In this document: positions 22,274-58,634 of the stretch, one piece after another | Layout: the number at the start of each line of letters is the position of its first letter | How positions within the stretch are numbered: the first letter of the stretch is position 1 | IMG/VR virus record: IMGVR_UViG_3300021431_000016 | Location: 1,906-65,905 of that record | Strand: one strand, 5' to 3' | Length of the DNA: 64,000 bases | From: a virus | Taxonomy: Duplodnaviria; Caudoviricetes | The notes under the pieces: generated by a model | Database searches by the model: none | The model's input: the letters and a program-made list of their open reading frames with translations, nothing else | What the model was told of the DNA's origin: nothing | Program-made: the position numbers and the translations under genes

Positions 22274-23368
22274 TCACATCTTCCCTTCGAGGATGTCGAA
22301 CCCCTCGTCGACATCTTTCTGGAGGACTTTTGCGTATATCTGCGTCGTCTTTATGTTGGAGTGGGCGAGCATACGGCTCACGGTCTCAATCCTTATTCCG
22401 CTGGATAGTGCGATGGTGGCGAATGTGTGGCGCCCGACATGCATGGATATATGTTTCTTTAATCCTGTGATTTTCTCAATTTTCCTCAACTCCACATTGG
22501 CGTGTGGGTTGGACAGGATGTTGAGGTTGTAGTCATATTTCTTGAGTATAGCCATCGCTTTTGGAAGAAGGCGCAGCTTGTACATCGAGCCTGTCTTTCT
22601 GCGGCGGTCTATGATGTACGGTTTGCCTTCGGTCATAAAGATGTCGTCCTTGCGAATCTTCACGAGGTCTACATATGCGAGGCCAGTATAGCAGGCGAAG
22701 AGAAAAAGGTCACGCGCCTGCACCTTGCGCCCTGTGAGTTTCACGTTCTCCACCTTCTCGAGTTCTTCCTGTGTAAGATAGCATATCTCCTTCCCCTTGC
22801 CTTTGGGTAGCTCCACCTTTAAGAGAGGGTCATTGGATATGAGGTTCTCTTTCATCGCAAGACGCACATACTTGCTGAACACGGCGTGGTAGTTTCTCAC
22901 AGAAGTAGGCACCATTCCTTCAGAGACCATCTTATCCACGGCCCTCTGTATTTTAGAGTGCGTTAGGTCGGCGAAATCGTTGATGCCGTTCGTGTGGTAT
23001 TTGCGCAACACGTCGAGCTGCGCGTCCTTTGTGGATTGGCGCAGGTTGGACTTCTCGGCGGCGGCTGTTGCCCATTCGTAGAAGTTCGCCTTGTTGTAAG
23101 TAATCGATAGAGAGAACGACGAGAGGTCGAAGCTGTCTTTCTCTATCTGCTGCTGGAGTTGGTTGAGCAGAATGTTCATTGACGAGGATAGCACCTTGTT
23201 AAGCGATGGCGCAGTCTTGCACCCGCTGATGATGCCCTTGGAGAATGTGGCGCCCTCGGGAACCTGGACGCCTGTGGAAAGGTACCGGCGCTTCCCTTCA
23301 TAATATACACAAGCCTCAACCTTACGGTTGTGTTTTCTGTTGTAGATGTAACTGATTTTTGGCAGCAT
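22274..23368 (-). CDS. int: Tyrosine integrase, Bacteroidales type
   Basis: RDLFLFACYTGLAYVD, RRKTG, HVGRHTFAT, MLAHSNIKTTQIYAK catalytic motifs; N-terminal arm-binding domain. Confidence 0.95.
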   Translation of the reverse strand: MLPKISYIYNRKHNRKVEACVYYEGKRRYLSTGVQVPEGATFSKGIISGCKTAPSLNKVLSSSMNILLNQLQQQIEKDSFDLSSFSLSITYNKANFYEWATAAAEKSNLRQSTKDAQLDVLRKYHTNGINDFADLTHSKIQRAVDKMVSEGMVPTSVRNYHAVFSKYVRLAMKENLISNDPLLKVELPKGKGKEICYLTQEELEKVENVKLTGRKVQARDLFLFACYTGLAYVDLVKIRKDDIFMTEGKPYIIDRRRKTGSMYKLRLLPKAMAILKKYDYNLNILSNPHANVELRKIEKITGLKKHISMHVGRHTFATIALSSGIRIETVSRMLAHSNIKTTQIYAKVLQKDVDEGFDILEGKM

Positions 23369-23388
23369 ATTGTATAATTTTTAGATAG

Positions 23389-23648
23389 TGGTAACAAAGA
23401 TTGGTAGCATTTCGGTAGCAAAGATATACTAATAATTTCGTATAATTGCGCATAATTGCGTTAAATAAAGTTAACAGCGAATTTCGCAACTCGCTGATTA
23501 TCAGTTAAACCGTTGTTAATTACCACATTCCTTTCAATACTATTGCAAATAAAAAGAGTAAATTTTTCTGTTGTCGGGGATGTGTGAGGGTCAGCGAGTT
23601 GTGTCATATATATAATAATGTGGTAGCAAAAAAGTAGCATCAGTAGCA
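23389..23648. other. attP-like region with arm-type direct repeats
   Basis: NGGTA(G/A)CA three times at 23389-23420 and NNGTAGCA three times at 23621-23648; inverted CAACTCGCTGA (23487-23497) / TCAGCGAGTTG (23591-23601). Confidence 0.7.
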
Positions 23649-23892: not shown

Positions 23893-24267
23893 TTAAAAGG
23901 TTTCTTTTATCTCTTCAAGTTCGCCATAATCATCTTCTTTTGCTCGGTCTCTTATATAATGAAGGACTTTAGCGGCATACCTGCCAACATCTTGGGGTGT
24001 CTCGTCCTCAATATACACATCGTCGCCATCTCCATAAATAAATTGTCTCTTTTCTTCAAAATAAAAAGCCATTGTGTCGCAGAAGGCGACAAGAGCTGAG
24101 TCTTTCTTATGAAGTCTTTGCTCAAGGCTGTCAACGGCAGCAAGGACAGCATCTTCTTTGTCGCCTGCTGCACAACCTTTTGCGAAGTAGCCAACACCGA
24201 AATACAAAGCAACTACGAATATTAAGGCCTCAAGCATGCTCTGCCTATCACTTTTGACTTTTCCCAT
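23893..24267 (-). CDS. Hypothetical membrane protein co-transcribed with the repressor
   Basis: N-terminal TM helix ending KGC, overlaps the repressor stop. Confidence 0.65.
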   Translation of the reverse strand: MGKVKSDRQSMLEALIFVVALYFGVGYFAKGCAAGDKEDAVLAAVDSLEQRLHKKDSALVAFCDTMAFYFEEKRQFIYGDGDDVYIEDETPQDVGRYAAKVLHYIRDRAKEDDYGELEEIKETF

Positions 24268-24947
24268 TATAGTATTTGCATGTTGATGATTGCTGTTACG
24301 CGGGCGAAGCCTGTGATGTCACTCATATTTATATAATAAGGTGCGAAGTTCTCGCCTTTGTTGGCGGGGACGCATTTCACATATCCATCCTTTTCGCTCT
24401 CGGCGATGTATTTCACGGTGAAGCCTGAGCGTGTGGCGATGGCGTATCGCTCTCCGTACTCTATAAAGTTCTCGTTCCAGGGGCGCAGGCAGACTATCGC
24501 CCCGTCGTTGATGGAGAGCTCGGGATGCTCGGTGTCGATCATCGAGCGCCCATGGACCTGCACTGCGAAGTCTCCGTCCTTGACTTTGAGGAACGGAAGT
24601 TTCACATCGTCTACTTTCTGGGCACTCATGATAGGCGCACCTTCTCCTTGCAGATAGCCGCCTGTGAAAATCTCCTCGTCGAAGAATGGAAGAGCGTTCT
24701 CATTTTTGTTACCGTTGGTATCAACTATCTCACCGTTCCCATCAAGATAAGGTTCTCCTTCTCCATCTTTCAACCAGTTGTAGTTTACACTGAAGGCGTC
24801 ACTGATTTTCGCCAATGTTCTGTCCGTTATATTTTGTTCTCCCGAAAGCATTTTTCGGAAGTTTGAGGGTGCTATACCTGCCTGATTAGCAAAGGCATTG
24901 GGGTTCATTCGTGCATCCCTGACAAGTCTTTTTAGCCGTTCTTTCAT
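24267..24947 (-). CDS. CI-like repressor (XRE HTH plus S24 peptidase)
   Basis: N-terminal HTH (NAFANQAGIAPSNFRKMLSG); VHGRSM catalytic Ser and TVKY catalytic Lys. Confidence 0.9.
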   Translation of the reverse strand: MKERLKRLVRDARMNPNAFANQAGIAPSNFRKMLSGEQNITDRTLAKISDAFSVNYNWLKDGEGEPYLDGNGEIVDTNGNKNENALPFFDEEIFTGGYLQGEGAPIMSAQKVDDVKLPFLKVKDGDFAVQVHGRSMIDTEHPELSINDGAIVCLRPWNENFIEYGERYAIATRSGFTVKYIAESEKDGYVKCVPANKGENFAPYYINMSDITGFARVTAIINMQIL

Positions 24948-46703: not shown

Positions 46704-49700
46704 ATGAAGAAGGATATAGCATTCGGTGGTGTGACCCGCATCCCTGGGGGAGCGTTGAGCAGCGACGGTGACCTGATGACCGCCGTTGATGTGTGCAATG
46801 ACGGCATGGGCCTTGAGATGCTTGAGAAACCAGAGCTGCTGTTTGGGCTCGAGGACGGCGAGGAACTGCTGTGCGTGCATGACCCCGAGGGAGACGAGAA
46901 GCACTACATCACGCAGATGGTGGTGGCAGGCGGGGATGCCCCCGCCGAGGAAGATGGCGACAGCTCTGGAGGGGCATCGGTGGAGCCCGACACTCCTGAA
47001 GAGACAGTGCCGGTGAGTGATGACCCCGCAGAAATCATAGACCCATATATAGAGCCTGTGGTGCCATCGGGCGACCCTGCTGGACAAGACGAGGAGAGCG
47101 CCTCGGCCGACGTGGTCCCATACCAGCCACCTTCGGGTGACGAGCTCGTGGTGATCGAGACCGTGATAGCGGGGGAAACGACACGCCACATAGACAACGG
47201 CGGCACTGTGGTGAACCCTCCAGGAGGTGGCGGCGGCACGGTAGACCCACCAGAGGAGTCAGGCGTGTTCCTGATTTTCCGTGACAAGGACGGCAACATG
47301 AAGCAGCACATAGACATCACGGCGTATGGTAAAGTGACGGCGGTGCAGCCCATGGGCAACACCCTCGTGTGCAACCATGCCGGCACCGCAGAGAATGCCG
47401 CAGCGGTGCGCTACTACCTGTTCAAGCTTGACAAGGGCCTGTACTCTCCCCTGGGGAGCGCTCCCCCTATGGTAGACATCAGGTTCGGGTTGCAGAGCAC
47501 CTGGGAGTACTACCCGAAGACCAAGAGCACGTTTGACGGCTCGGAGTACAAGACATATGGTGGCGTGAGCATTGACAGATGGTTCTATACCGACACCGTG
47601 CCGGTGTGGTGGGCCAGAAAAGCGTCGGAGGCCTATGTGCCGCCCTATGACCTTGCGGTAAACGCCACGCACGGCAGCGATGACTCGGGTTATCACTACA
47701 ACGCGAGTGAAGAGGAGGTGACATCCACCACCCGCCGCATGGAGCACTTCCAGACGACCTACAGCGTGGAAGGTGTGGTGAGCCCCGACAACAAGACCGA
47801 CGTGGCGGGTGCGAAGATAGATTGGACAACAAGGGTGCTGGGCAGCTACAACAAGTTCATCGCCGAGCAGCACAAGGAGAACAAGTTCGTGTTCCCCTTC
47901 TATGTGCGCTATGCCTACGAGCTTTATGACGGAAGCCTGATAATGCACTCCTACCCTGTGCTGATGATTCCCAACTCAAGAGGCCCCATCTTCGCCCTCG
48001 ATGGGCGGTATGGGCTATTTGCCGACATGAATGACAACAACCAAACATACGAGAAAGTGCGCCTGTACTTCAGGGGCCGCACCTACGGCTTCGCCAGCAC
48101 ACTGATGCACAAAATAGCGGCGCTGACGACCGAAGAGCAGGAGCGCCTTGAGAACTGGAAAGACCTGATAAGGGGCATCGCAATATATGTCACTCCACCC
48201 ATCTACAACTACAACCAGGGCGGACAGGTGCTTGGCTGGCACTCGATGCACTCGGCCGACCCCGCCAACAATAACGAAGACCCCTGGGAGAAGCACTACA
48301 CCGTGGGGAAGGTGGTGGATGCCAACGGCACCCGCCTGACCTCGGGCGAGACGAAGATGGACTACGCCTTCGCCCACTGGCTCACCAATGACACCTTCGT
48401 GCCGTGGGACAGCACCTCACAGCACAAGGCCCCAGGCTACTGCATGACGGTGCCGATGAAGGAAGACAAAGAGGTGCTGGAGTTGCATGAGAGTGCTGGG
48501 CAATTCTTCAAACTCGCGGAGATAGAATATGACAAACTCATAGAGATGACCCGCAACGGCACCACTGACGGCAAAGTGGAGATAGGCAAGCGGAAGCTAA
48601 TGTCCATCGCCAGTCAGGACCAGATGCAGGATGACAATGGGAGCCACGACACGAAGAGCGCAGAGGTGCTGTATGGCTACAACAGGCGGCTGAACATGGC
48701 TGGCGTGGAAAAGGTGCTGCACTCACCAATAGCCCTGGAGAGCCAGTGGGCTCACGACTATAACCTCGACAACCACGGCAAGATGTATCAGGAGATAGTG
48801 AGTGTGGCGAATGGCGGCCGAACCGCGACGCTGCGCACCACCGGCAACAACATGGCGGTGTCATCGCCAAAATACCTGTTCTACCCCAACACCTATGCCC
48901 GCGAGATAGTGCTGGTGAAGGACGGCACCACACTGAAATACAGGTTCAAGCTCAAGGAGCACAAGGCGCTTAACGGCATGTTCTGGTTGGGCGACTTCAT
49001 GAACAGTGCAGACTGCATCAACGACAGCCTGCTGACAGGAAGCGCGGCGGCGGCGATAGACGTGAGTGGCGGCGAGGAGAATAAGAGCGTGGACGAGAGC
49101 AACAAGATATACACGAGCGAGACCGACAACCCCTTCGTGATACCCTTCGGGAACATCAACATTGCGGGCGGTGGTGAGGTGCGTGCCCTGTGCAGCGCAA
49201 CGCAGGCGATGAGCCAGGGGCAGTTCGGCCAGCACCCGCTTTACTGCTTCACGAGCGAAGGAGTATGGGCTCTAACGGTGAACGACACAGGCGGCTGGGC
49301 AACGATACAGCCTGTGACAAGAGACGTTATCAGTGAGCAGACAAAGCCCCTGTCGCTTGACAGCACCGTGGTTTTCCTCACTGAACGAGGCCTGCTTCAA
49401 CTCGCAGGCTCGGACGTGAAGGTGCTCAGTGACGTGCTGCAAAACGCTGACCCGCTCACAGGACTGAATAAATTGACGGCACTGTGTGACGCGACAGGCA
49501 ACGAGGGCCTGCTCGGCATCGCCACGGCACTCGCAGAGGGCAAGTTTGGCGAAAAGGCATGGCTCGGCTACGATTACGACAACGCGCGCATATATGTCAC
49601 TCCATGGGACGACGGCAAGACCTACGGCACCCACGGAAGCTGGGTGTATAACCTCAAGAGCGGACTGTGGACGCAGGCGAGCACCACAATAGACCGACAA

Positions 49701-50099
49701 GTGCCTACATATCCCGAGCTTGAGACGCAGAGTGACGGCAAAGTGGTGAGAATAAGCGTAGACAGGGCCGTACAGGGCAATTTGCGCGAGAAAGGCCTGG
49801 TTATATCACGCCCGATTAAACTCGCTGATATGGGGCTTTTAAAGCGTTGGCGCGAGATTGCTGTGAGAGGCCGCTTCAAACCTTATTCAACCGCTGTGCA
49901 GGTGGCGTTGTGGGGTACTCGTGACTGGATTGATCTTGCCCTTGTGGCGAGCTCGACACGCAACAGGCTGACGCGCTGGAGCGGGAGTCCCTACTTTGGC
50001 CACTCGGTGGGCCTATTCCTCACGCGCCCAGACTACGCCATGCAGGTGGCGGGGATGGACGTGGAGGTGGACGCAGAACACGACAACAAACTACGATAA
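46704..50099 (+). CDS. Tail nozzle / stabilisation protein candidate (beta-propeller-like)
   Basis: 1131 aa beta-rich protein in the portal operon; IYTSETDNPF, FGQHPLYCFTSEGVWAL, VVFLTERGL motifs typical of short-tail nozzle proteins. Confidence 0.65.
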   Translation: MKKDIAFGGVTRIPGGALSSDGDLMTAVDVCNDGMGLEMLEKPELLFGLEDGEELLCVHDPEGDEKHYITQMVVAGGDAPAEEDGDSSGGASVEPDTPEETVPVSDDPAEIIDPYIEPVVPSGDPAGQDEESASADVVPYQPPSGDELVVIETVIAGETTRHIDNGGTVVNPPGGGGGTVDPPEESGVFLIFRDKDGNMKQHIDITAYGKVTAVQPMGNTLVCNHAGTAENAAAVRYYLFKLDKGLYSPLGSAPPMVDIRFGLQSTWEYYPKTKSTFDGSEYKTYGGVSIDRWFYTDTVPVWWARKASEAYVPPYDLAVNATHGSDDSGYHYNASEEEVTSTTRRMEHFQTTYSVEGVVSPDNKTDVAGAKIDWTTRVLGSYNKFIAEQHKENKFVFPFYVRYAYELYDGSLIMHSYPVLMIPNSRGPIFALDGRYGLFADMNDNNQTYEKVRLYFRGRTYGFASTLMHKIAALTTEEQERLENWKDLIRGIAIYVTPPIYNYNQGGQVLGWHSMHSADPANNNEDPWEKHYTVGKVVDANGTRLTSGETKMDYAFAHWLTNDTFVPWDSTSQHKAPGYCMTVPMKEDKEVLELHESAGQFFKLAEIEYDKLIEMTRNGTTDGKVEIGKRKLMSIASQDQMQDDNGSHDTKSAEVLYGYNRRLNMAGVEKVLHSPIALESQWAHDYNLDNHGKMYQEIVSVANGGRTATLRTTGNNMAVSSPKYLFYPNTYAREIVLVKDGTTLKYRFKLKEHKALNGMFWLGDFMNSADCINDSLLTGSAAAAIDVSGGEENKSVDESNKIYTSETDNPFVIPFGNINIAGGGEVRALCSATQAMSQGQFGQHPLYCFTSEGVWALTVNDTGGWATIQPVTRDVISEQTKPLSLDSTVVFLTERGLLQLAGSDVKVLSDVLQNADPLTGLNKLTALCDATGNEGLLGIATALAEGKFGEKAWLGYDYDNARIYVTPWDDGKTYGTHGSWVYNLKSGLWTQASTTIDRQVPTYPELETQSDGKVVRISVDRAVQGNLREKGLVISRPIKLADMGLLKRWREIAVRGRFKPYSTAVQVALWGTRDWIDLALVASSTRNRLTRWSGSPYFGHSVGLFLTRPDYAMQVAGMDVEVDAEHDNKLR

Positions 50100-50166
50100 C
50101 AGTTGCATATTAGTTCTTTAACCAAAAAAGAAAGGAGGCTTTGATTCTACACATTTTTTGGAGGCG

Positions 50167-50199
50167 CGGCGGGGCTTGTGAAAGTGCCGCCGTTTTTTT
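50167..50199 (+). terminator. Intrinsic terminator of the portal operon
   Basis: CGGCGG..CTT-GTGA-AAG..CCGCCG followed by T7. Confidence 0.75.
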
Positions 50200-50227
50200 G
50201 TTTATTGGGAAGAAATGTATACCTTTG
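50197..50227 (+). promoter_or_regulatory. Consensus Bacteroidetes promoter with no downstream ORF
   Basis: TTTG (50197-50200), 19 nt, TACCTTTG (50220-50227). Confidence 0.7.
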
Positions 50228-50230
50228 TAG

Positions 50231-50297
50231 TGTAATTTTTAGATAGTGCCCCGGTTGGGCACAAAAAAAGGACGACCTGTGAAGGCCGTCCTTTCTT
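50231..50297 (+). ncRNA. Candidate ~65-nt trans-acting antisense sRNA
   Basis: Begins just after the promoter with TGTAATTTTTAGATAG, then a GTGCCC/GGGCAC hairpin, then a terminator hairpin. Confidence 0.55.
50263..50297. terminator. Bidirectional terminator closing the leftward operon
   Basis: A7-GGACG..CCT-GTGA-AGG..CGTCC-TTTCTT. Confidence 0.75.
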
Positions 50298-50308
50298 ATG
50301 GGCAGATG

Positions 50309-50527
50309 TCATTTCCATTTGACCGACAACCGGCATCCAAGTCCGTCAACGATGCGGACAATGTTCTCAAGTGACACGTTGCCGCCGTTCTCAAGCCGCA
50401 GCACTGATGGGTGGCTCATCCCTGCCTTTTCGGCGAGTTTGCGGGCGCCCCACCCTTTTTGCTGGCGTCGCTCTCGTATGAGCGCGCCGAACTCTTCCAT
50501 TGCTTTCTTTATTTCCTCTTCGTTCAT
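50309..50527 (-). CDS. XRE-family HTH protein (Aca-like position)
   Basis: LIRERRQQKGWGARKLAEKAGMSHPSVLRLENG. Confidence 0.85.
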   Translation of the reverse strand: MNEEEIKKAMEEFGALIRERRQQKGWGARKLAEKAGMSHPSVLRLENGGNVSLENIVRIVDGLGCRLSVKWK

Positions 50528-50892
50528 GGGATAATTATTTTTGCGCCGAGCGCGTTAAGTAACTTGTTTGCCACATCAATAGTGGGCGAGAAGCGCCCTG
50601 CTTCGATGTTGACGACTGTTGACTTGCTGACCCCTGCGAGTTCAGCGAGTTGTCTCACGGTGTAGCCTTTGGCGCGCCTGTGCTGTGCTATCTCATTGCC
50701 GATGCGCACCCTTGTTCGGTAAGGCTCGTCAAGCACGATGTCGTAGAGCGGGGTGATAGAGCCTACCTGTAAGTAGGCGTTGTTCTGTTCGTCCACCCAC
50801 ACGGCCTTACCGTAAGACGATGTGGGGTGTTCGGTAGTGGAGTGGACTTTGATTTCCTCTCCTGTGGATTTGATGATTAGTGTTGCTGTCAT
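50524..50892 (-). CDS. Two-domain protein with C-terminal XRE HTH
   Basis: IAQHRRAKGYTVRQLAELAGVSKSTVVNIEAG; N-terminal TTEHPTSSYGKAVWVD domain. Confidence 0.8.
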   Translation of the reverse strand: MTATLIIKSTGEEIKVHSTTEHPTSSYGKAVWVDEQNNAYLQVGSITPLYDIVLDEPYRTRVRIGNEIAQHRRAKGYTVRQLAELAGVSKSTVVNIEAGRFSPTIDVANKLLNALGAKIIIP

Positions 50893-51365
50893 AGTAATGT
50901 CAAATCTTCGCTAAAACATATAGTAAGTTCGCCGTTAGGAGTTTCGTAGATTGCATCAATATTATACTTGTCTGCATCGGCAAGGTCAAGTTTGACTGCG
51001 GCATTGGTATAGTCTCTTGCGGGTATCAGGCCGTAGGACTTGATAGTTTGCGCCACATCTTCGATACATGGCTCTTCTTCACAGATGAATGGGTCGCCGT
51101 TGTAGGTTGCTATACTATTGTAAACCTTTTGTTTAAGACTAACGAAGATAGCTTCATCTAAATACTCCTCAAGGATTTCGGCGTGACGGCGGTTTGCTTC
51201 ATATGCCTTGTTTCCTGTTATCTCTCCCTCGCTGTTGACGTGGAACGTCTCGCCGTATTCTTCCATAGTCTGCTCAAGAGCATCTTGCACCATGTTGTTG
51301 AGTTCGTCTAACAGGTCGTTCTCTCTTGCCTTTTGCTCAAGGCGAATGTAATCGGTTGTGTACAT
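50889..51365 (-). CDS. Acidic hypothetical protein
   Basis: Clean ORF with A-rich leader. Confidence 0.65.
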   Translation of the reverse strand: MYTTDYIRLEQKARENDLLDELNNMVQDALEQTMEEYGETFHVNSEGEITGNKAYEANRRHAEILEEYLDEAIFVSLKQKVYNSIATYNGDPFICEEEPCIEDVAQTIKSYGLIPARDYTNAAVKLDLADADKYNIDAIYETPNGELTICFSEDLTLL

Positions 51366-51377
51366 AGTTGTAAATGT

Positions 51378-51674
51378 TTAGAGTGTTCTACGATAGGTGT
51401 TGATGTCAATGTAGCGAATGCCTGTACGGCGCGTTTTGCGGTAGTTGTAGTCCATGAACTTGCCTTGGCTATGGGCATACCAACCAAAGCGACTTGCGCC
51501 CCTGTCGGTAGCGTGTTTCAAGAGCAGCTGCCTTGTATATCTGGGCATTTCAACCACCTCAAAGACATGGATGCAATAGTTGCCTTCGTTGAGGTCGCGG
51601 AAATACTTGCTCTTGTTACCTCTTACTTTGATTGGGAAATCTTTCCCAAGTGGATAAATCTCAAAAGTTGTCAT
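51378..51674 (-). CDS. Hypothetical protein
   Basis: ORF preceded by GGGGCAA hairpin copy A. Confidence 0.65.
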   Translation of the reverse strand: MTTFEIYPLGKDFPIKVRGNKSKYFRDLNEGNYCIHVFEVVEMPRYTRQLLLKHATDRGASRFGWYAHSQGKFMDYNYRKTRRTGIRYIDINTYRRTL

Positions 51675-51814
51675 AGTTCTGTTGCGGAATTTAGCGAGTT
51701 GCCCCCTCGCGAATTTGTTTGCAAAGATAGTGAAAGTTTTGAATGTACCAAAAGATTGGTACGGAAATTTTGTAGAGTGGGACAGGCTCGCCCTGTCCTT
51801 GCGCAGTCGTTAGA

Positions 51815-52018
51815 TTAGTGAATGAAATAAAGCCAATAGCCATCAATGTTGATTGTTTGGTCGTTGAGTGCATCGCTTAACTCCTCAAGGGTTAAAACTT
51901 GTGTCTCGTGTTCCTCGCCTCTCATAGCAAGTCCGTACAATTCGTACTCGTTCATTCGGTCAAGATTGTACCTGTCGTACTTGTCAATGTCGAATAATAA
52001 TGCTTTTGCCGCTTTCAT
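51815..52018 (-). CDS. Small acidic hypothetical protein
   Basis: ORF with TATCTAAAAATTACA leader. Confidence 0.65.
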   Translation of the reverse strand: MKAAKALLFDIDKYDRYNLDRMNEYELYGLAMRGEEHETQVLTLEELSDALNDQTINIDGYWLYFIH

Positions 52019-52064
52019 AATGTTGTAATTTTTAGATAAATAATTAAGTTGATTAACTCATTGT

Positions 52065-52108
52065 GGGGAGTGTTGGTATCGCTCCAACTGCGGTCATTCC
52101 TACTCCCC
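52065..52108 (-). ncRNA. tRNA-like half element E1
   Basis: GGGGAGT/ACTCCCC stem stacked on GTTGG-AGCGATA-CCAAC, 3' ACAA. Confidence 0.55.
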
Positions 52109-52115
52109 TGTGCCG

Positions 52116-53387
52116 TTATGCCACGGCTTTCAACAAGTGCATGTTGTCGTTGCACAGGGCAACAATCTCGTTGTGCTTGTCGGTATACTTGTTGCACACG
52201 CCACGCGACTGCATGACTTTGTAATGCTTGGTGTCAATCTCAATGGTCTCAAGACGCGCCCCTGTGTGCTTGTCGCGGGCAAACAATATGAGGGTGTCGG
52301 CCTCTTTGTAGTACTCGTTCGCGAAGACGCAATGGTGCATGTGCTTGCCCTCAAGGCGTATGTCCTCAACAGACTGGGCGACCTTAATCTCAATGTCCTC
52401 GTTGCCGAAATAGACAGAGAGGTATTTCTCATGCAACTTGCGGTAAATCTCTTCGTACCGCTTTGCCTTTTCTTTGTCGGCCTTTTCCTTTAACTTCGCC
52501 TTTGCTCGCTCCAAGCGGGCAGTTGTGCGCGTGTGCGCCTGTGACAGGTCGGACGGGCAGACGTAATGGGCGTTGTGGGTGTCAAGTCCTAACGCCTCTA
52601 AGTCGCGGATGTAGTCGCACCACTCATCGGCATTCTGCACGATGTAGTTGTTGCGGTTGCAGATGCGCACCGCATGAAGCGGTATGTCACTGCGGTATCC
52701 TCGGACGTGCCTTGCTACCAATGAGTGTTGCCCTGTCTTGAGGAGTTCCTCGGTGATGGGGTCGGTGAGCAGATGGGTGTAAAGCGACACAGGCGATGCG
52801 CCAATGTCCTTGCGGGTCGCTCCCTTGGTTCTAAGCACAGGGAGCAATGACTCCCATCGGTTGTACTGCGAGTAGATGTCATACTTGCCCCAACTCCTTG
52901 TATAGGGCGCGGGGTCGTGCTTGATGCTCATGGGAACTGAAAACACCCAAATATCGTAATACCATGAGTGCATATTGACAGGGCGCGCCATGATGGTGCG
53001 TTGCCCCTTTTCGTTTATCCACACCTGTACCGCCTCGTTGACTTGGTATTGTGTGGGTTTGCCCTTGCGGGCGGTGCGCCACACAACGAAATGGCGTGCC
53101 ACTTGATAACCTCTAAACGTGGTGTGGATGGTGGCGTAGTCCTTGCGGTCTTCGGTCGTGTAACGCGCGCTCTTGATGGTGTCAAACTGGCGCCCGCAAT
53201 GTGGACACGTTGTTGCCCCTGTCTCCATCACTCCACCACAGGACACACACCATTGTTGGTGCTTGGTGTGGTAGGCGGTGGCGGGGTTGGCGTTTCTCTT
53301 TAGTGCTCGCTCCTGTGTCTGTGTCAGGGCGGGCAAAAGAGGTGACAAGCTCGCCACTTCTTTCTCTGTTCTTGTCCTTGGTCTCAT
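52116..53387 (-). CDS. PcfJ-like protein
   Basis: Zn ribbon CVSC..CPHC; C-terminal EGKHMHHCV..Y..LILFAR..RLETIEI..QSRG..N. Confidence 0.85.
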   Translation of the reverse strand: MRPRTRTEKEVASLSPLLPALTQTQERALKRNANPATAYHTKHQQWCVSCGGVMETGATTCPHCGRQFDTIKSARYTTEDRKDYATIHTTFRGYQVARHFVVWRTARKGKPTQYQVNEAVQVWINEKGQRTIMARPVNMHSWYYDIWVFSVPMSIKHDPAPYTRSWGKYDIYSQYNRWESLLPVLRTKGATRKDIGASPVSLYTHLLTDPITEELLKTGQHSLVARHVRGYRSDIPLHAVRICNRNNYIVQNADEWCDYIRDLEALGLDTHNAHYVCPSDLSQAHTRTTARLERAKAKLKEKADKEKAKRYEEIYRKLHEKYLSVYFGNEDIEIKVAQSVEDIRLEGKHMHHCVFANEYYKEADTLILFARDKHTGARLETIEIDTKHYKVMQSRGVCNKYTDKHNEIVALCNDNMHLLKAVA

Positions 53388-53394
53388 GGCGCAA

Positions 53395-53871
53395 TCAACT
53401 GAATGGGTCAAACTCTGCGAAATCGGCAAATAAGTCCATTTGCTTGCTCTCTACAGGCTTTTTCGCCTTTGGTTGGGTTGTCGCCTTGGTGGGGGCAGCA
53501 GGCTTCGTTACAACGGCTTTCTTGGGCGCGGGTTGTGCCTTGGGCGCGGTCTTCTTGGGTTGCGCCTTGGCGGTCTTGTTGGTGTCCTCGGGTTTCTCCA
53601 ACTTGGTGTTAACGATGGTGCGCACATTCTTTACCTCTTTGAGGTCTTCCTGTGGCAACTCGGTTGCCTCGTAGTAGGTAACCGCCATGCCAAAAATCTC
53701 TGAGTCATCAAAACCGATGCGGTCGGTTTTGCGTACTTGGTTGAGGATGTAATAGCAACACTCCTCAACTGATTTGTCGGGGTTGTGGTACTTGAGAGCA
53801 AACTGCTCATCGTGCTTTGCGAGCGCGTCAAGATAGGCGCGGATTGCGATTTGGAAAATGTCATCTGTCAT
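53395..53871 (-). CDS. PcfK-like protein (family recalled to include the Cas9 inhibitor AcrIIA9)
   Basis: FQIAIRAYLD..DEQF..K..KSVEECCYYILNQV..GFDDSEIFGMAVTYY; Lys/Pro tail, QMDLF end; adjacent to pcfJ-like gene. Confidence 0.8.
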   Translation of the reverse strand: MTDDIFQIAIRAYLDALAKHDEQFALKYHNPDKSVEECCYYILNQVRKTDRIGFDDSEIFGMAVTYYEATELPQEDLKEVKNVRTIVNTKLEKPEDTNKTAKAQPKKTAPKAQPAPKKAVVTKPAAPTKATTQPKAKKPVESKQMDLFADFAEFDPFS

Positions 53872-53929
53872 AATGGTTCTACGGAATTTTAGGTGTTGCC
53901 CCCACCTCTATAGTTAGAAAAATAATTGT

Positions 53930-53974
53930 GGGTGCGGGAGTCGCGAACTCCCTGTCGGCTGAACCGAAGCACCC
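53930..53974 (-). ncRNA. tRNA-like half element E2
   Basis: GGGTGC/GCACCC stem, TCGG/CCGA arm, GGGAG-TTCGCGA-CTCCC arm, 3' ACAA. Confidence 0.55.
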
Positions 53975-53980
53975 TGCGCC

Positions 53981-54217
53981 CTAAAGGGCAATAGTGAGTT
54001 GTGTTGGCTCGTTGGTTAACAACGGCGCGAAATCAAAAAGCCAACCACGGAGCAGCACGCCTGTAGTGCCGTGCGCTATGTGGTTCTTGATGTAAGCGGT
54101 ATCGCGCTTGCTCGGTCGCTTGCCGTTCTCCCACAGGGCGAAACACAAGCGGTAAATGTCGGTATCACGCAACGTGTCAAGGCTCGGCACGTTGTCAGAA
54201 TATTGAACTACTCTCAT
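53981..54217 (-). CDS. Hypothetical protein (start re-set to MRVVQY)
   Basis: ATG 11 nt after the upstream stop. Confidence 0.55.
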   Translation of the reverse strand: MRVVQYSDNVPSLDTLRDTDIYRLCFALWENGKRPSKRDTAYIKNHIAHGTTGVLLRGWLFDFAPLLTNEPTQLTIAL

Positions 54218-54228
54218 AGCGGTAAGGA

Positions 54229-54585
54229 TTATGCGCCAAAACCTAACGCGGTTGCTACCTCTTTGCCCCTCTTCTTGCTGAAAATCCAGCCTGCGCCACA
54301 TTTTAGTTTGGGGTTGAATCGGCCACCCAATTTCTTGAGTTGCGCTTTGTGTGCCTTGGTGTCGCCCACGATGGCGAAAGCCTTTTCGCTATAGTCCACG
54401 AAGCGAAGCACAGGCTTCTCGGTGGTACGTTGCGCCGTCTCGGTCTCGGCGTGGAGATCTCCACCCTCGCCCCCGTCCTCGGTGGCTACAGGGGTGGCGT
54501 GGTCGCTTAAACGCGCCTTGCCTGTCTCCTTTAACTCGGTAAATAACCCCTCTACATTGACCTTTTGAATCGTTGCTTTACTCAT
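54229..54585 (-). CDS. Protein with VDYSEKAFA..GDTK..LGGRFN domain (seen in polyvalent and leading-region proteins)
   Basis: C-terminal motif VDYSEKAFAIVGDTKAHKAQLKKLGGRFNPKLKCGAGWIFS. Confidence 0.7.
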   Translation of the reverse strand: MSKATIQKVNVEGLFTELKETGKARLSDHATPVATEDGGEGGDLHAETETAQRTTEKPVLRFVDYSEKAFAIVGDTKAHKAQLKKLGGRFNPKLKCGAGWIFSKKRGKEVATALGFGA

Positions 54586-54708
54586 AGTTCGTTTGCAGAA
54601 TTTTTCGTGTTGCCCCCACGTTTAAAAGTTATTGCTACCCTCGCCCTGTGTGTAGGGCGAGACGCTCACGGCTTAAAGCCTGTTTTACATCGCCGTGACG
54701 ATGAAGGG

Positions 54709-54930
54709 TTAATCTTCAATTGCGATAGGCGAATCCTCTGCACCACACATTTTTGCACCATCTGCAAGTTTTTGTATCTCATCAATAGTCGTTTTATACA
54801 ATACAATAGTGTGGGAAGTATCACAGGTATAACGAACAAAGAACGAGTGGCGTGTAATGGTTAAATACCTTACCATTGCCAAAAAGTCATTGTAATAAGT
54901 GTATTTAACTTGATAGCCTTTTGTTTCCAT
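54709..54930 (-). CDS. Small hypothetical protein
   Basis: A-rich leader; resembles the neighbouring 54942-55163 product. Confidence 0.55.
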   Translation of the reverse strand: METKGYQVKYTYYNDFLAMVRYLTITRHSFFVRYTCDTSHTIVLYKTTIDEIQKLADGAKMCGAEDSPIAIED

Positions 54931-54941
54931 AGTCGTAAATG

Positions 54942-55163
54942 TTAGAATGTTAAGTAATCTGCTTCAACTCTAATAGGGAATTCCGTACCCCACATTTTTG
55001 CGCCCCGTGCGATTTTGTCGGCTTTGGTCTCATCAATGCCATCAATCATTATTCGCTCGGTGTCTCCATCATAGAAGAATGAAATTTGCATAGTAAGTAA
55101 ATGCTTTACTAATGCTCTGCGGTCTTGCATTGAACTCGCAATGAAATAAAATACAATGTCCAT
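54942..55163 (-). CDS. Small hypothetical protein
   Basis: TATCTAAAAAATTACG leader. Confidence 0.55.
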   Translation of the reverse strand: MDIVFYFIASSMQDRRALVKHLLTMQISFFYDGDTERIMIDGIDETKADKIARGAKMWGTEFPIRVEADYLTF

Positions 55164-55212
55164 AATCGTAATTTTTTAGATAGTTATTAATTAGGTTGGT
55201 TGTAATTGAGTT

Positions 55213-55257
55213 GTGGCGGGCGGTGTCGCTCCACCTTACAGGGTCTGCCCTCGCCAC
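55213..55257 (-). ncRNA. tRNA-like half element E3
   Basis: GTGGCG/CGCCAC stem, AGGG/CCCT arm, GGTGG-AGCGACA-CCGCC arm. Confidence 0.55.
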
Positions 55258-55265
55258 ATTGGGGG

Positions 55266-55508
55266 TTATTGTAACTCCTTAACTTTGATATAAAAATGGT
55301 GCGTGTTGCTTTTGGTCTCTATCCTGTAGCAATTTTCCATTTCCTCGCGCCCTTCCTTGAATGTCGGCAATTGCCTGTATTCTTCAATGATTTTGTTATA
55401 GGCTTCTTTGGCTTTCTTTGCGCTGCTATATGCGCCCACAATGGTAGTATATTCGCAACTTACATATTTAGCCAAATGCATCAATATGTGAACTCGTTTT
55501 ATAGCCAT
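55266..55508 (-). CDS. Small hypothetical protein
   Basis: IVGAYSSAKKAKEA pattern common in small phage proteins. Confidence 0.6.
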   Translation of the reverse strand: MAIKRVHILMHLAKYVSCEYTTIVGAYSSAKKAKEAYNKIIEEYRQLPTFKEGREEMENCYRIETKSNTHHFYIKVKELQ

Positions 55509-55511
55509 ATT

Positions 55512-55799
55512 TTAGGGGTTGTTTAATATATTATTATCTACTCGCAGAACTGAATCTACACTATCACAAGCGAACATAAAATCGTCCGTCTCGCTCCATG
55601 CGTCGTCCCAAACAACGTCAAGTTGCTTGGTTGTCATGTTGTAGTAGTCGTAGCCGTTGGCAATACACCACGCCCTGAAGCGAGGTTCAAGCATCTCTAA
55701 CTTTTGGTCGCGGTTGTGGTCTCGTTGGGATTGTATGCCCGCTACTAATGACGGCACACAGGGCGTGAGTAACGCCACAAGTAAAATTAATTTCTTCAT
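55512..55799 (-). CDS. Secreted or periplasmic hypothetical protein
   Basis: MKKLILLVALL signal-peptide-like N-terminus. Confidence 0.65.
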   Translation of the reverse strand: MKKLILLVALLTPCVPSLVAGIQSQRDHNRDQKLEMLEPRFRAWCIANGYDYYNMTTKQLDVVWDDAWSETDDFMFACDSVDSVLRVDNNILNNP

Positions 55800-55852
55800 G
55801 ATTGTAATTTTTAGATATTAATAATATTAGGGGGATTGCTCCCCCTGTGTGG

Positions 55853-56212
55853 TTAGTCCTCGTCTTGCTCTAACTCGTCTAACACTTGAGCTAAGCATTG
55901 ACCCAACAGGTAACAACGTATTGTTACATCACAGGCCTCTGCGCCAATCTTAAGCACGTCTATTTCCCCGCCAAACTCATCGCTTGCCTCTGCAAGTAAA
56001 TCTAAATTGTGGCAAAGATTCTCTTCTGCTTGGTAGGCGCTAAACGTGTAGCTACCACTCGCGTTTCCTGTAACTGAATCACTAACAAACAGGTCGTCAT
56101 AAAGTTCTTGGCATAAGTCCTCTTTGTTGTCGCTTGTAACTTTGATGTCGTTCTCGTTAATGTAGTCGCGAATGTCATTACTAACGGCTTTGTAATAATT
56201 ATATTTACTCAT
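55853..56212 (-). CDS. Highly acidic protein, possible Ocr-like DNA mimic
   Basis: 119 aa with 27 D/E against 7 K/R by hand count; first gene after the early promoter. Confidence 0.55.
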   Translation of the reverse strand: MSKYNYYKAVSNDIRDYINENDIKVTSDNKEDLCQELYDDLFVSDSVTGNASGSYTFSAYQAEENLCHNLDLLAEASDEFGGEIDVLKIGAEACDVTIRCYLLGQCLAQVLDELEQDED

Positions 56213-56270
56213 AATAATTGTGCTGAATTTTAAGTGTTGCCACCACTTTTAAAGTGAATAAAAAAGTAGT

Positions 56271-56317
56271 GGGTGTTGCGGTCTCGCTCCGCTCGTCTGC
56301 CGTTAGCAGATACACCC
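56271..56317 (-). ncRNA. tRNA-like half element E4
   Basis: GGGTGT/ACACCC stem, TCTGC/GCAGA arm, GCGG-AGCGAGA-CCGC arm. Confidence 0.55.
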
Positions 56318-56465
56318 AAAATAATTTGGTTGTCGGTCGGTTGCTTAACAAGCTATGTCCGTTGCCCGCTTAACGACTTATCGGCTGCTCGTGAGCCGTG
56401 CGCTCGAAGCGAAAATCGCCCCCTCATGCTATGTCCAAAAGGCGCATTGCTAAACGATTTCGCTG

Positions 56466-56496
56466 CAAAGTTAGTGGTATTTTCGGTAATACCAAA
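56466..56496 (-). promoter_or_regulatory. Early leftward promoter with an operator-like palindrome in its spacer
   Basis: Minus strand TTTG-19 nt-TAACTTTG; TGGTATT-N6-AATACCA at 56475-56494. Confidence 0.75.
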
Positions 56497-57739
56497 ACTT
56501 TTTGCCAAAAAAATGCACTTTTTTTGAAAAAAATTTTCGCCACCTTATTATAAAAGAAAATGAAAATGACCGAAATGACCAGAATCTAAATGCCAATGCG
56601 CTGTAAACCACCGATTTAATTAAGGAAATTTTTCCGTAATTAGAAAAAATGTTGAAGTGGAAGAAAAATGTGGGGGTGACAACATGGCCAAAACCTTTCT
56701 AGCGGGGTGGGTGTGCAACAAAATTGCCCACGTTTTGTTTGGAATCGTTCCAAATAAGGGGTGTGCCGTACGTTTGACAAATGACCGATTCACAGGTATT
56801 TAAGCACCAAGGAATAATATTTTATGCGCCAAATAGAATAAATTAAGCGCCAAGATAATTAATCACGCGTATAGATCTAGAGATTTAAACGCATAGAAGT
56901 ACAATTATACGCGTATAGATTAATATATATAAGCGCAAATATATTATCATTTAGCGCCGTTCTCGGTGGCAATGCTACCCATTTGCTACCGACCTATCGA
57001 CAGGCGAGGCACAACCGACTAAAGAACAGGTGGTTAAGTGCCGTTATTGCAAATAGTGACCCTATTAACAACCCCATGCGAGGTAATTATTTTGTCGCCG
57101 TCGGCCCTGTGATTTTTTTTGTGGTGCTATCCCCCATCCGCCACCGCCACCGCCACGGCGTGCCGTGATTCCCTGTGGCGCACCGACCCACCGCCAGCCG
57201 TGGCGAGCCGACCCCCGACCACGCACCCACCCCGAGGGCGAGGGCAAGGCGCCGAAAGGAACTCCATATCCTCCGCGCGCGAGGACCCGGCTTTGGCCTC
57301 TTTTGCACTCCCTTACCATTTTTTTGTTCATTGCTTTCAGGGTCGGTCATGGTTACCTATACTTTTTGGGACTCCTGGCATCTCTTGGATTTCCGTGGCG
57401 CATATAAATTTTTGATTAGCGCCGTGCATTTGAGGTAGATTAGGGTACCCATAGATAGTACCCTTTTTACGCGCGTCAGACGAAATTCAGTTTACTGCCG
57501 TTGTGTTCATGTGCGTAGAACGCTCGATTTGCCGTCTCTCGTTCGTTCTGCGGGCATTTCTCCCCTCCGCTGATAACTTCTTCATCTTTGTTCCAAAACT
57601 CGCTTATATCGCCTTATTTGAAGTTTGTTGGATTCAGGTACTTTTTAGGAGTCCCAGAGTCATGGATTATTTCATTGGCGCAAAAAAATAAAAAATCTTC
57701 CTTTCTTTCTTTGGAGTATAGATATATATAAGATTATTT

Positions 57740-57775
57740 GAGTATACTGAGTATACGTAGTATACGAAGTATACG
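57740..57775 (+). repeat. Four tandem AGTATAC units (9-bp period) in an AT-rich tract
   Basis: gAGTATACtgAGTATACgtAGTATACgaAGTATACg. Confidence 0.7.
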
Positions 57776-57887
57776 AGAATAAGATTATATATAGATATAC
57801 TCTTTCTTATATGGTATCTCTAATGAAGTGAGTAATGTATAACCTTTAGGTTATATATTACGAACGTAATGGGTGTGTCATTTTAGT

Positions 57888-57986
57888 GACATACCCTATG
57901 TAACTCCAGTGACATACCTATGCTATTTTGCTTACATACCTATGTCGTTTTATTGACATACCTATGTAAGTGGAGTGACATACCCC
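57888..57986 (+). repeat. Five iteron-like direct repeats at 22-23 bp period
   Basis: (G/T)ACATACC at 57888, 57911, 57933, 57955 and 57977, mostly followed by TATG. Confidence 0.8.
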
Positions 57987-58042
57987 ATTTAGGTAGTATA
58001 GTGGTGTTCCGTTTTTCTTTACGGCGTTATAGTCTTTGAAAG

Positions 58043-58086
58043 TTCGTTGGTTGCAGAAGGTGTGCGGATTATAAATATTACCTTTG
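58043..58086 (+). promoter_or_regulatory. Late promoter, copy 4 (ejection-protein operon)
   Basis: TTCGTTGGTTGCA at 58043-58055, N23, TACCTTTG at 58079-58086. Confidence 0.8.
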
Positions 58087-58115
58087 GCGAGATATTAACT
58101 TGAATAGAAACAGAT

Positions 58116-58634
58116 ATGGGATTATTTTCAGATATAGCTGGTGTCGCTACTGCGGGCATAGGTGCTGGTCTTTCTGCATTAGGCGGTGCTCGTGCTGCTC
58201 GTCAGAAGCGTCGTGAGTTGGCGAAGCGAGAGGCGGACAACAATGCGTGGTATGACCAGAGGTATAACGAGTTGGGCACGGAGCGTGCCGATGCGCAGGC
58301 GGCGTTGAGTGCCATGCGTGCGGCGCAGGCACAGAGGATGAGTTCGGCGCGTGGTGCTTCGGCTGTTATGGGTGCGAGTGCGGGTTCTGTCGTCGCTGAG
58401 AAGAACGCCGCCAACCAGGCGATGGGTCAGACCATCGGGCAGATAAACGCCAACAACGAGAATAACAAGATGGCGATAGAGAACACCTACCTTCAGAAGA
58501 AGGACGACATATCGAACCAGCGTTTGAACATGTACGAGCAGCAGGCGCAGAACCTTGCGCAGGCTGGTTCACAGTTAAGTTCATTGGGCGCAGGCATGAT
58601 GGGCAAGGTCCTGTCTGGCAAAAAAAGCACTTAA
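58116..58634 (+). CDS. Putative DNA pilot / ejection protein
   Basis: MGLFSDIAGVATAGIGAGLSALGG Gly/Ala hydrophobic N-terminus and Gln/Ala coiled coil, typical of podovirus ejection proteins. Confidence 0.65.
   Translation: MGLFSDIAGVATAGIGAGLSALGGARAARQKRRELAKREADNNAWYDQRYNELGTERADAQAALSAMRAAQAQRMSSARGASAVMGASAGSVVAEKNAANQAMGQTIGQINANNENNKMAIENTYLQKKDDISNQRLNMYEQQAQNLAQAGSQLSSLGAGMMGKVLSGKKST

Follow-up and report, generated by a model that had tools for sequence, protein, structure and literature searches.

The gap between two convergent gene blocks of a temperate phage probably encodes a trans-acting antisense small RNA (sRNA), running from position 50232 to ~50297, that would block translation initiation of a small phage regulon. 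An earlier note on this DNA had proposed an sRNA, running from promoter to terminator, with a 5′ seed complementary to the leaders of the integrase gene (int) and of early genes, and this core claim is strongly supported by our comparison of related phages. Because RNA and leaders change together across 14 related phages, it is likely that the RNA switches int and three early genes off together.

The stretch we analyzed (the window) comprises 64 kb of a 65.9-kb IMG/VR virus record and is contained in 16 sequencing runs, none of them recorded as RNA, with DNA from animal gut metagenomes, some of them labeled sheep or bovine. Its source is a temperate phage of the gut or rumen, with promoters of the Bacteroidota type. 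The window carries genes for a tyrosine integrase and a CI-like repressor, as well as a long early operon (Table 1), and a P22-type portal is present in relatives. A blastn search with positions 49000-53000 found no match among public phage records, and the genome contigs that we searched contained no prophage relatives of the 1131-aa protein encoded upstream of the sRNA unit.

A predicted promoter-to-terminator unit in the convergent gap

The order of elements that the earlier note had read at 50197-50297, a promoter followed by a tag, a hairpin, and a terminator, is present there. The T-tract of terminator 1, which belongs to the upstream 1131-aa gene, runs directly into the −33 TTTG box of a bipartite promoter. 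When we scanned the whole window for TTTG-N18-22-TAnnTTTG, this promoter, which had been described as a consensus one, proved to be a full bipartite match, one of six in the 64 kb compared with 0.98 expected. Its −7 box is followed by the four nucleotides tagt and then, from 50232, by GTAATTTTTAGATAGTG. A −7 box, four nucleotides, and a G follow one another both in the promoter of the early operon (TAACTTTG-cagc-G) and in that of the sRNA (TACCTTTG-tagt-G); across the related phages, the 4-nt stretch between box and G reads (c/t)(a/g/c)(g/a)(c/t).

Table 1. Positions of the features of the window that are discussed in the text
Feature	Position	Strand	Remarks
Tyrosine integrase gene (int)	22274-23368	-	Pfam Phage_integrase
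Target 1: int leader	23369-23391	-	CACTATCTAAAAATTA at −23 to −8, 7 nt before ATG; 16/16 identity to sRNA locus; predicted duplex −19.3 kcal/mol, best of 84 leaders
CI-like repressor gene	24267-24947
Full promoter matches	24989 and 25088		Divergent repressor/cro-like pair
Full promoter match	30308		Not placed
1131-aa structural gene	46704-50099	+	Upstream neighbor of the sRNA unit
Terminator 1 of the 1131-aa gene	50165-50200	+	Hairpin GGCGCGGCGGGG...GCCGCCG, then T7, then G
Bacteroidota-type promoter, TTTG-N19-TACCTTTG	50197-50227	+	TTTG at 50197-50200; TACCTTTG at 50220-50227
Predicted sRNA	50232-50297	+	~65 nt, non-coding
Unpaired 5′ seed of the predicted sRNA	50232-50245(48)	+
Hairpin 1 of the predicted sRNA	50246-50262	+	6 bp, GTGCCC/GGGCAC, then A7 linker
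Terminator hairpin of the predicted sRNA	50270-50291	+	GGACGACC-TGTGAA-GGCCGTCC, then TTTCTT
XRE-type HTH gene, 72 aa	50309-50527	-	Last gene of the convergent early operon; Pfam HTH_3, 1.7e-11
Long early operon	~56496-50309	-	Includes PcfK, PcfJ, and two XRE HTH genes
Full promoter match	51722		Internal early-operon site
Target 2: leader of the 67-aa gene (51815-52018)	52019-52039	-	15/15 identity; predicted duplex −15.6 kcal/mol
GC-rich structured element	52065-52108	-	Directly upstream of a tagged early leader
Pistol ribozyme, full length	54633-54703	-	Rfam RF02679; 68.1 bits against a gathering score of 34.5
Target 3: leader of the 73-aa gene (54942-55163)	55164-55184	-	Predicted duplex −16.0 kcal/mol
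GC-rich structured element	55213-55257	-	Directly upstream of a tagged early leader
Target 4: leader of the 95-aa gene (55512-55799)	55800-55818	-	15/15 identity; predicted duplex −15.2 kcal/mol
GC-rich structured element	55822-55837	-	Directly upstream of a tagged early leader
Full promoter match	56466-56496	-	Early-operon start

The predicted RNA has a minimum free energy of −26.1 kcal/mol (z = −4.84), with its 5′ 14 nucleotides unpaired. As the earlier note had stated, the unit lacks an ORF: the window RNA contains no ATG, and no ORF is conserved among 14 homologues. We also considered a small-ORF reading and rejected it, since 8 of the 14 RNAs are without an ATG and start positions are inconsistent. 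The terminator is bidirectional, being common to the sRNA unit and the last gene of the early operon. A promoter of its own and an intrinsic terminator bound this non-coding unit, an arrangement expected of a trans-encoded base-pairing sRNA, and we infer that it is transcribed.

Leader tags complementary to the seed

The sequence TAATTTTTAGATA occurs five times on the plus strand of the window, with one copy carrying an extra T; the chance expectation from shuffled sequences is 0.00. Allowing at most one mismatch, we located the 14-mer TAATTTTTAGATAG at 23375, 50233, 52026, and 55805, all on the plus strand, and the copy with one extra T lies at 55170. The tags at 23375, 52026, 55170, and 55805 are situated 3-9 nt before the ATG of minus-strand genes. 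The fifth copy, at 50233, falls in the gap where the 1131-aa gene and the last early gene converge and is preceded by TACCTTTG and four nucleotides where the other copies have CAT. The identities of 16/16, 15/15, and 15/15 between the sRNA locus and the leaders hold as first reported. The remaining target, in front of the 73-aa gene, has an additional A in its tag, for which a 1-nt bulge is predicted.

We compared the 17-nt seed with 84 leaders of the window. Predicted duplex energies range from −15.2 to −19.3 kcal/mol for the four tagged leaders, whereas the other 80 average −4.4 ± 1.5 kcal/mol, with the next best at −10.4 kcal/mol. Seeds of 24 nt, which include a hairpin arm, produced spurious GC pairings with other leaders, and the analysis was redone with the unpaired part only. 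It had been set out beforehand that the proposal would fall if the 15-mer were a generic leader found equally before unrelated host genes; within the phage, only 4 of its own 84 leaders in the window are tagged, and to that extent the proposal stands. The seed, predicted to be accessible, is complementary to several unlinked mRNAs, four in the window and two to four in each relative.

The 67-, 73-, and 95-aa target genes are unrelated to one another, and searches of PHROGs and Pfam assigned no function to any of them. Their description as early anti-defence genes is not supported in the window, where they encode unassigned small proteins; it has a counterpart only in relatives, in which ArdC-like genes are tagged. 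The 95-aa protein has a hydrophobic N-terminal segment resembling a signal peptide, with a possible lipobox Cys in some copies, and a conserved core, WCxxNGY...W.ETD...DS(I/V)D, that matches neither Pfam nor PHROGs. From these sequence features, it may be a surface or exclusion protein.

The early operon contains further elements. The Pistol ribozyme is flanked by genes of 73 aa (54709-54930) and 118 aa (54229-54585), and its location inside the operon implies programmed cleavage of the early polycistronic mRNA. A second leader type, GTGG(G/T)GGCAACAC-N-(A/T)AAAATTC, is found ~20 nt before the ATG of the minus-strand genes 53395-53871, 54229-54585, and 55853-56212 and shows no complementarity to the unpaired seed. 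Ahead of 51365 and 54930 there is a third type, TCTAAACATTTAC(A/G)ACT-ATG. The GC-rich structured elements directly upstream of the tagged early leaders may be processing or stabilizing sites that leave the tag near a 5′ end. Two of them had been labeled tRNA-half mimics, but ARAGORN finds no tRNA in the window.

Conservation of the unit and co-variation of seed and leaders

To examine relatives, we searched with the last 400 aa of the 1131-aa protein as the anchor, which yielded 13 further contigs at 53-84% identity: L001 (= L123, L126, and G001), L124, L125, and L206-L215. Most of these genomes are partial. Together with the window, they provide 14 loci, and the unit is present in all 14, in each case in the convergent gap. 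The anchor stop codon is followed by a conserved 3′ block, terminator 1, and the −33 TTTG, which is often the end of the terminator 1 T-tract. Next come a spacer of ~19-23 nt, TAnnTTTG, four nucleotides, a G, and an AU-rich tail of 14-30 nt, and the locus ends with hairpin 1, an A-rich or ATTAA linker, a GGGGACTCGTGAGAGCCCC-type terminator hairpin, and a T-rich tail. TAnnTTTG is kept in 14 of 14 loci with a TTTG ~19-23 nt upstream (counted by eye), although the spacers diverge. Nearly all 14 loci also carry, after the 1131-aa stop codon and ahead of terminator 1, a block, (T)TCTTAACCAAAAAGAAAGGAGG (50117-50137, plus strand, in the window), that contains a strong Shine-Dalgarno-like AAGGAGG though the phage promoters are of the Bacteroidota type.

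All 14 homologues share a fold consisting of an unpaired 5′ tail, hairpin 1, a linker, and the terminator. A covariance model built on the 14 sequences scores those same sequences at 55-82 bits; the model was quickly calibrated, so that its E-values are rough. In the terminator helix, pairing reaches 93%, and 10 of the 12 pairs show compensatory changes. Hairpin 1 has many different stem sequences and was aligned poorly by MAFFT (67.6% paired after realignment with the covariance model), and support for it therefore rests on the per-sequence folds.

The unit belongs to a narrow clade, since 79 more distant loci, whose neighbor protein has 31-37% amino acid identity, lack it and gave no convincing match to the covariance model (best scores 29 and 23.5 bits). 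An unbiased scan for a −7 box plus a 12-mer recurring after the CAT of at least two minus-strand ORFs recovered no other unit than this one, which it detected in the window and in the distinct relatives G001 and L125; ~1 Mb of sequence from more distant relatives gave no match. In IMG/VR, the exact 27-mer had no match. The pattern TTTG-N3-6-TAATTTTTAGATA had at least 117 matches there, nearly all of them chance occurrences in AT-rich phages; only L001 and L018 are homologous.

Although the architecture is constant, the seed is not. The 14 phages fall into ~8 seed classes. By phage, the seeds read GTAATTTTTAGATA (window and G001), GTATTTTTTAGATAT (L208), GTAAATTTTTAAAGATT (L124), GAATTTTGAAATTAC (L125), GTAATTTTTTAAACTGTT (L206), GTATTTTTTTAAACTGTT (L213), GTAATTTTTTTATAAGT (L207 and L214), GTATTTTTTATAAGT (L215), GAATTTTATAATTAAACTTTTAG (L209), GAATTTTTAATTAAACAAATGATT (L210), GAATTTTTAATTAAACAATGATT (L211), and GTAATTTTTGAAATTAAT (L212). 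Each seed matches two to four leaders of its own phage, and in every phage with enough downstream sequence, the matching tag stands right after CAT-N2-9 in two to four genes. The homology between sRNA and targets stops no more than 1-2 nt from the predicted +1; upstream of that point lies the promoter at the sRNA locus and CAT at the target sites. Because the 14 phages are related, the independent observations number ~8 seed classes rather than 14 sequences. Some pairings are imperfect: the sRNA of L208 has two positions that do not match its targets, and several targets differ in T-run length.

The most conserved target is the 95-aa gene, whose orthologue bears the cognate tag in 13 of 13 phages. 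Duplexes with its leaders average −16.4 kcal/mol for cognate pairs versus −6.3 kcal/mol for non-cognate pairs; none of 100,000 permutations reached the cognate mean, and the cognate leader ranked first for 11 of 13 sRNAs. The proposal that int is a target likewise holds in the two phages in which int could be examined, the window and L209, where it is tagged with different tags; the two int orthologues are 58% identical and differ in position and strand relative to the sRNA. Other tagged genes include ArdC-N/MPTase-PolyVal genes in L206, L207, L212, L213, and L214 and a DUF2958 gene in L209. Gene conversion, rather than selection for pairing, could in principle also keep such short dispersed repeats identical.

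These comparisons bear on a reading in which the tag is a minus-strand translation or processing leader cassette, such as the site of a RegA-like RNA-binding protein or a phage-specific translational enhancer, and the copy at 50233 is a gene-less orphan from which no plus-strand RNA is made. A GC-rich hairpin precedes every tagged early-operon leader and, on the minus strand, the 50233 copy as well. The covariance model weakly matches a target-plus-hairpin module at 16297-16347 of L208 (24.5 bits), meaning that the sRNA locus looks like such a leader module. Read as its reverse complement, the complete unit folds at −32.1 kcal/mol, and the window terminator, which also folds on the minus strand, is stronger there: a G-U pair on that strand is an A-C mismatch on the plus strand, where the tail TTTCTT makes a weak U-tract. 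We nevertheless consider this reading improbable. An orphan would not persist in 14 of 14 phages, nor would it track ~8 tag changes, and on the minus strand neither an ATG nor an ORF follows the 50233 copy. The fusion to a conserved, opposite-facing −33/−7 promoter, with homology ending near +1, is left unexplained. Moreover, hairpin 1 is more stable on the plus strand (energy sums of −117 kcal/mol on the plus versus −97.6 kcal/mol on the minus strand), in 10 of the 14 loci and markedly so in L209, L210, and L211, which points to a plus-strand RNA. The L208 match suggests that the sRNA gene may have arisen by duplication of a leader module that then gained an outward promoter.

We also weighed whether the tag might be a double-stranded DNA operator for a phage regulator, for example, one of the neighboring XRE HTH proteins, that represses the orphan promoter and the tagged genes, with specificities co-evolving. 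Two HTH genes directly adjoin the unit, HTH type and seed class broadly go together among distant relatives, and the tag, at 50228-50245, abuts the −7 box. This explanation is very unlikely, however, given that the adjacent HTH proteins of L206 and L207 are 95% identical and have the same predicted HTH residues, yet their tags differ (AAACTGTT versus TATAAGT). The tag is also asymmetric and keeps a single orientation throughout. At the targets, within a polycistronic operon, only 3-9 nt separate it from a start codon, and there is no promoter close by; neither TTTG nor TAnnTTTG was found upstream of 52018, 55163, or 55799. Tags beside start codons that lack promoters fit control at the level of RNA rather than transcription.

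Predicted action and relation to known regulatory RNAs

If the unit is an antisense sRNA, as we favor, transcription by the host RNA polymerase would begin at G50232, 5 nt past the TACCTTTG −7 box, and end at the terminator hairpin, which would also terminate the convergent early operon. The first 14-17 nt of the sRNA, predicted to be unpaired and perfectly or near-perfectly complementary to the leader tag, would pair 3-9 nt upstream of the AUG in four mRNAs, those of int and the 67-, 73-, and 95-aa genes. The resulting duplex of 15-17 bp at about −6 to −23 should exclude the 30S subunit and may expose the mRNA to cleavage by RNase III. The expected outcome is joint repression of the tagged genes and probably also of cistrons coupled behind them. 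Bacteroidia ribosomes do not use the Shine-Dalgarno sequence, and leader structure and upstream A residues tune initiation (PMC6847099). Because initiation in this group needs an unstructured, A-rich leader, a duplex of this length should block it. Since the tagged early genes follow a GC-rich structured element and have further cistrons close behind, whole sub-operons may be silenced. The RNA may act in the lysogen or, as a shut-off, late in infection, and the proposal that it is a component of the lysis/lysogeny switch is speculative.

The sign of regulation is not fixed by sequence, and an RNA that pairs with the leaders might instead activate them, either through protection of processed 5′ ends or by melting structure that the leaders form with the upstream hairpins. 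GC-rich hairpins stand immediately before the tagged leaders of the early operon, and with such structured elements and a Pistol ribozyme elsewhere in the early operon, processed 5′ ends near the tag are plausible. Activation is unlikely nonetheless: the predicted duplex falls inside the 30S footprint, and the leaders are AU-rich, without predicted inhibitory structure to relieve. Furthermore, leader structure impairs initiation in Bacteroidia (PMC6847099), and the known seed sRNAs of Bacteroides repress (PMC11697453).

The sRNA unit functionally resembles two groups of known RNAs, c4 and FopS/GibS, but is a member of neither family. The CI RNA of phage P4 is a relative of the c4 antisense RNA of P1 and P7. 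The latter (immI) is a phage antisense RNA for which differences between phages in RNA and target set heteroimmunity (PMC12197685), as developed in the c4 work of Citron & Schuster (1990, 1992; listed in PMC12197685 and PMC8546580). Like c4, which blocks translation by pairing around ribosome-binding sites, the predicted RNA would pair with short sites at translation starts of its own phage's mRNA and block translation there, and its complementarity co-varies between related phages, here in ~8 classes and at a level reached by 0 of 100,000 permutations. Unlike the present unit, c4 is processed from an operon transcript that carries its targets and acts via loop sequences. The predicted RNA has its own conserved host-type promoter, faces the target operon, and would act through its very 5′ terminus; its targets are three to five dispersed leaders, including that of int 27 kb away, in a host phylum without Shine-Dalgarno use. 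A search of the whole window against Rfam 15 at the gathering threshold matched only Pistol and not C4, and at E ≤ 1 on 49500-58500, only Pistol was matched, with no hit to C4 or FopS/GibS.

FopS is deposited in Rfam; FopS and GibS of Bacteroides thetaiotaomicron have a sigma-ABfr promoter, a single-stranded 5′ seed, a terminator, and a length of ~65-70 nt, and they repress translation near start codons, acting on the first cistron of polycistrons (PMC11697453). The predicted phage RNA shares the sigma-ABfr-type promoter, the single-stranded 5′ seed, the terminator, and a length of ~65 nt. FopS and GibS are chromosomal and multicopy, and the conserved R1 seed that they carry is directed against PUL susC mRNAs of the host. 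In contrast, the RNA described here is single-copy and phage-borne, has an extra hairpin, and carries a fast-diversifying seed that matches genes of its own phage.

P22 sar and lambda OOP are small phage RNAs that lower the expression of phage regulatory genes by base pairing, and both are cis-antisense, transcribed opposite their single target. Unlike them, the predicted RNA is trans-encoded and would address several unlinked genes via a repeated tag. Both are listed among phage antisense RNAs in PMC12197685. In the literature we searched, there was no description of an RNA of this kind in Bacteroidota phages.

The diversity of seed classes among close relatives resembles c4 heteroimmunity and motivates a bolder, more tentative hypothesis of superinfection immunity, to which we give appreciably less credence than to the antisense sRNA itself. 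Here, the sRNA and its tags would form an RNA-based immunity or exclusion code. A prophage would make the sRNA constitutively from its host-type promoter and thereby silence its own int and early genes together with those of incoming phages with the same tag, and escape from silencing would drive diversification into ~8 orthogonal seed/tag classes. If true, phages with Bacteroidota-type promoters would possess a programmable counterpart of P1/P7 heteroimmunity that acts on multiple targets.

To our knowledge, post-transcriptional control in Bacteroidota phages is essentially uncharted. In the phages compared here, one small RNA appears to address several unlinked genes via a short, portable leader tag, and the ~8 specificity classes amount to a natural series of compensatory mutations already present in the comparative data. 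If confirmed, the finding would extend gene control in the temperate phages of a dominant gut and rumen phylum by a layer of RNA regulation, offer a possible explanation of heteroimmunity among close relatives, and provide ready-made orthogonal sRNA/leader pairs for gene control in Bacteroides or Prevotella.
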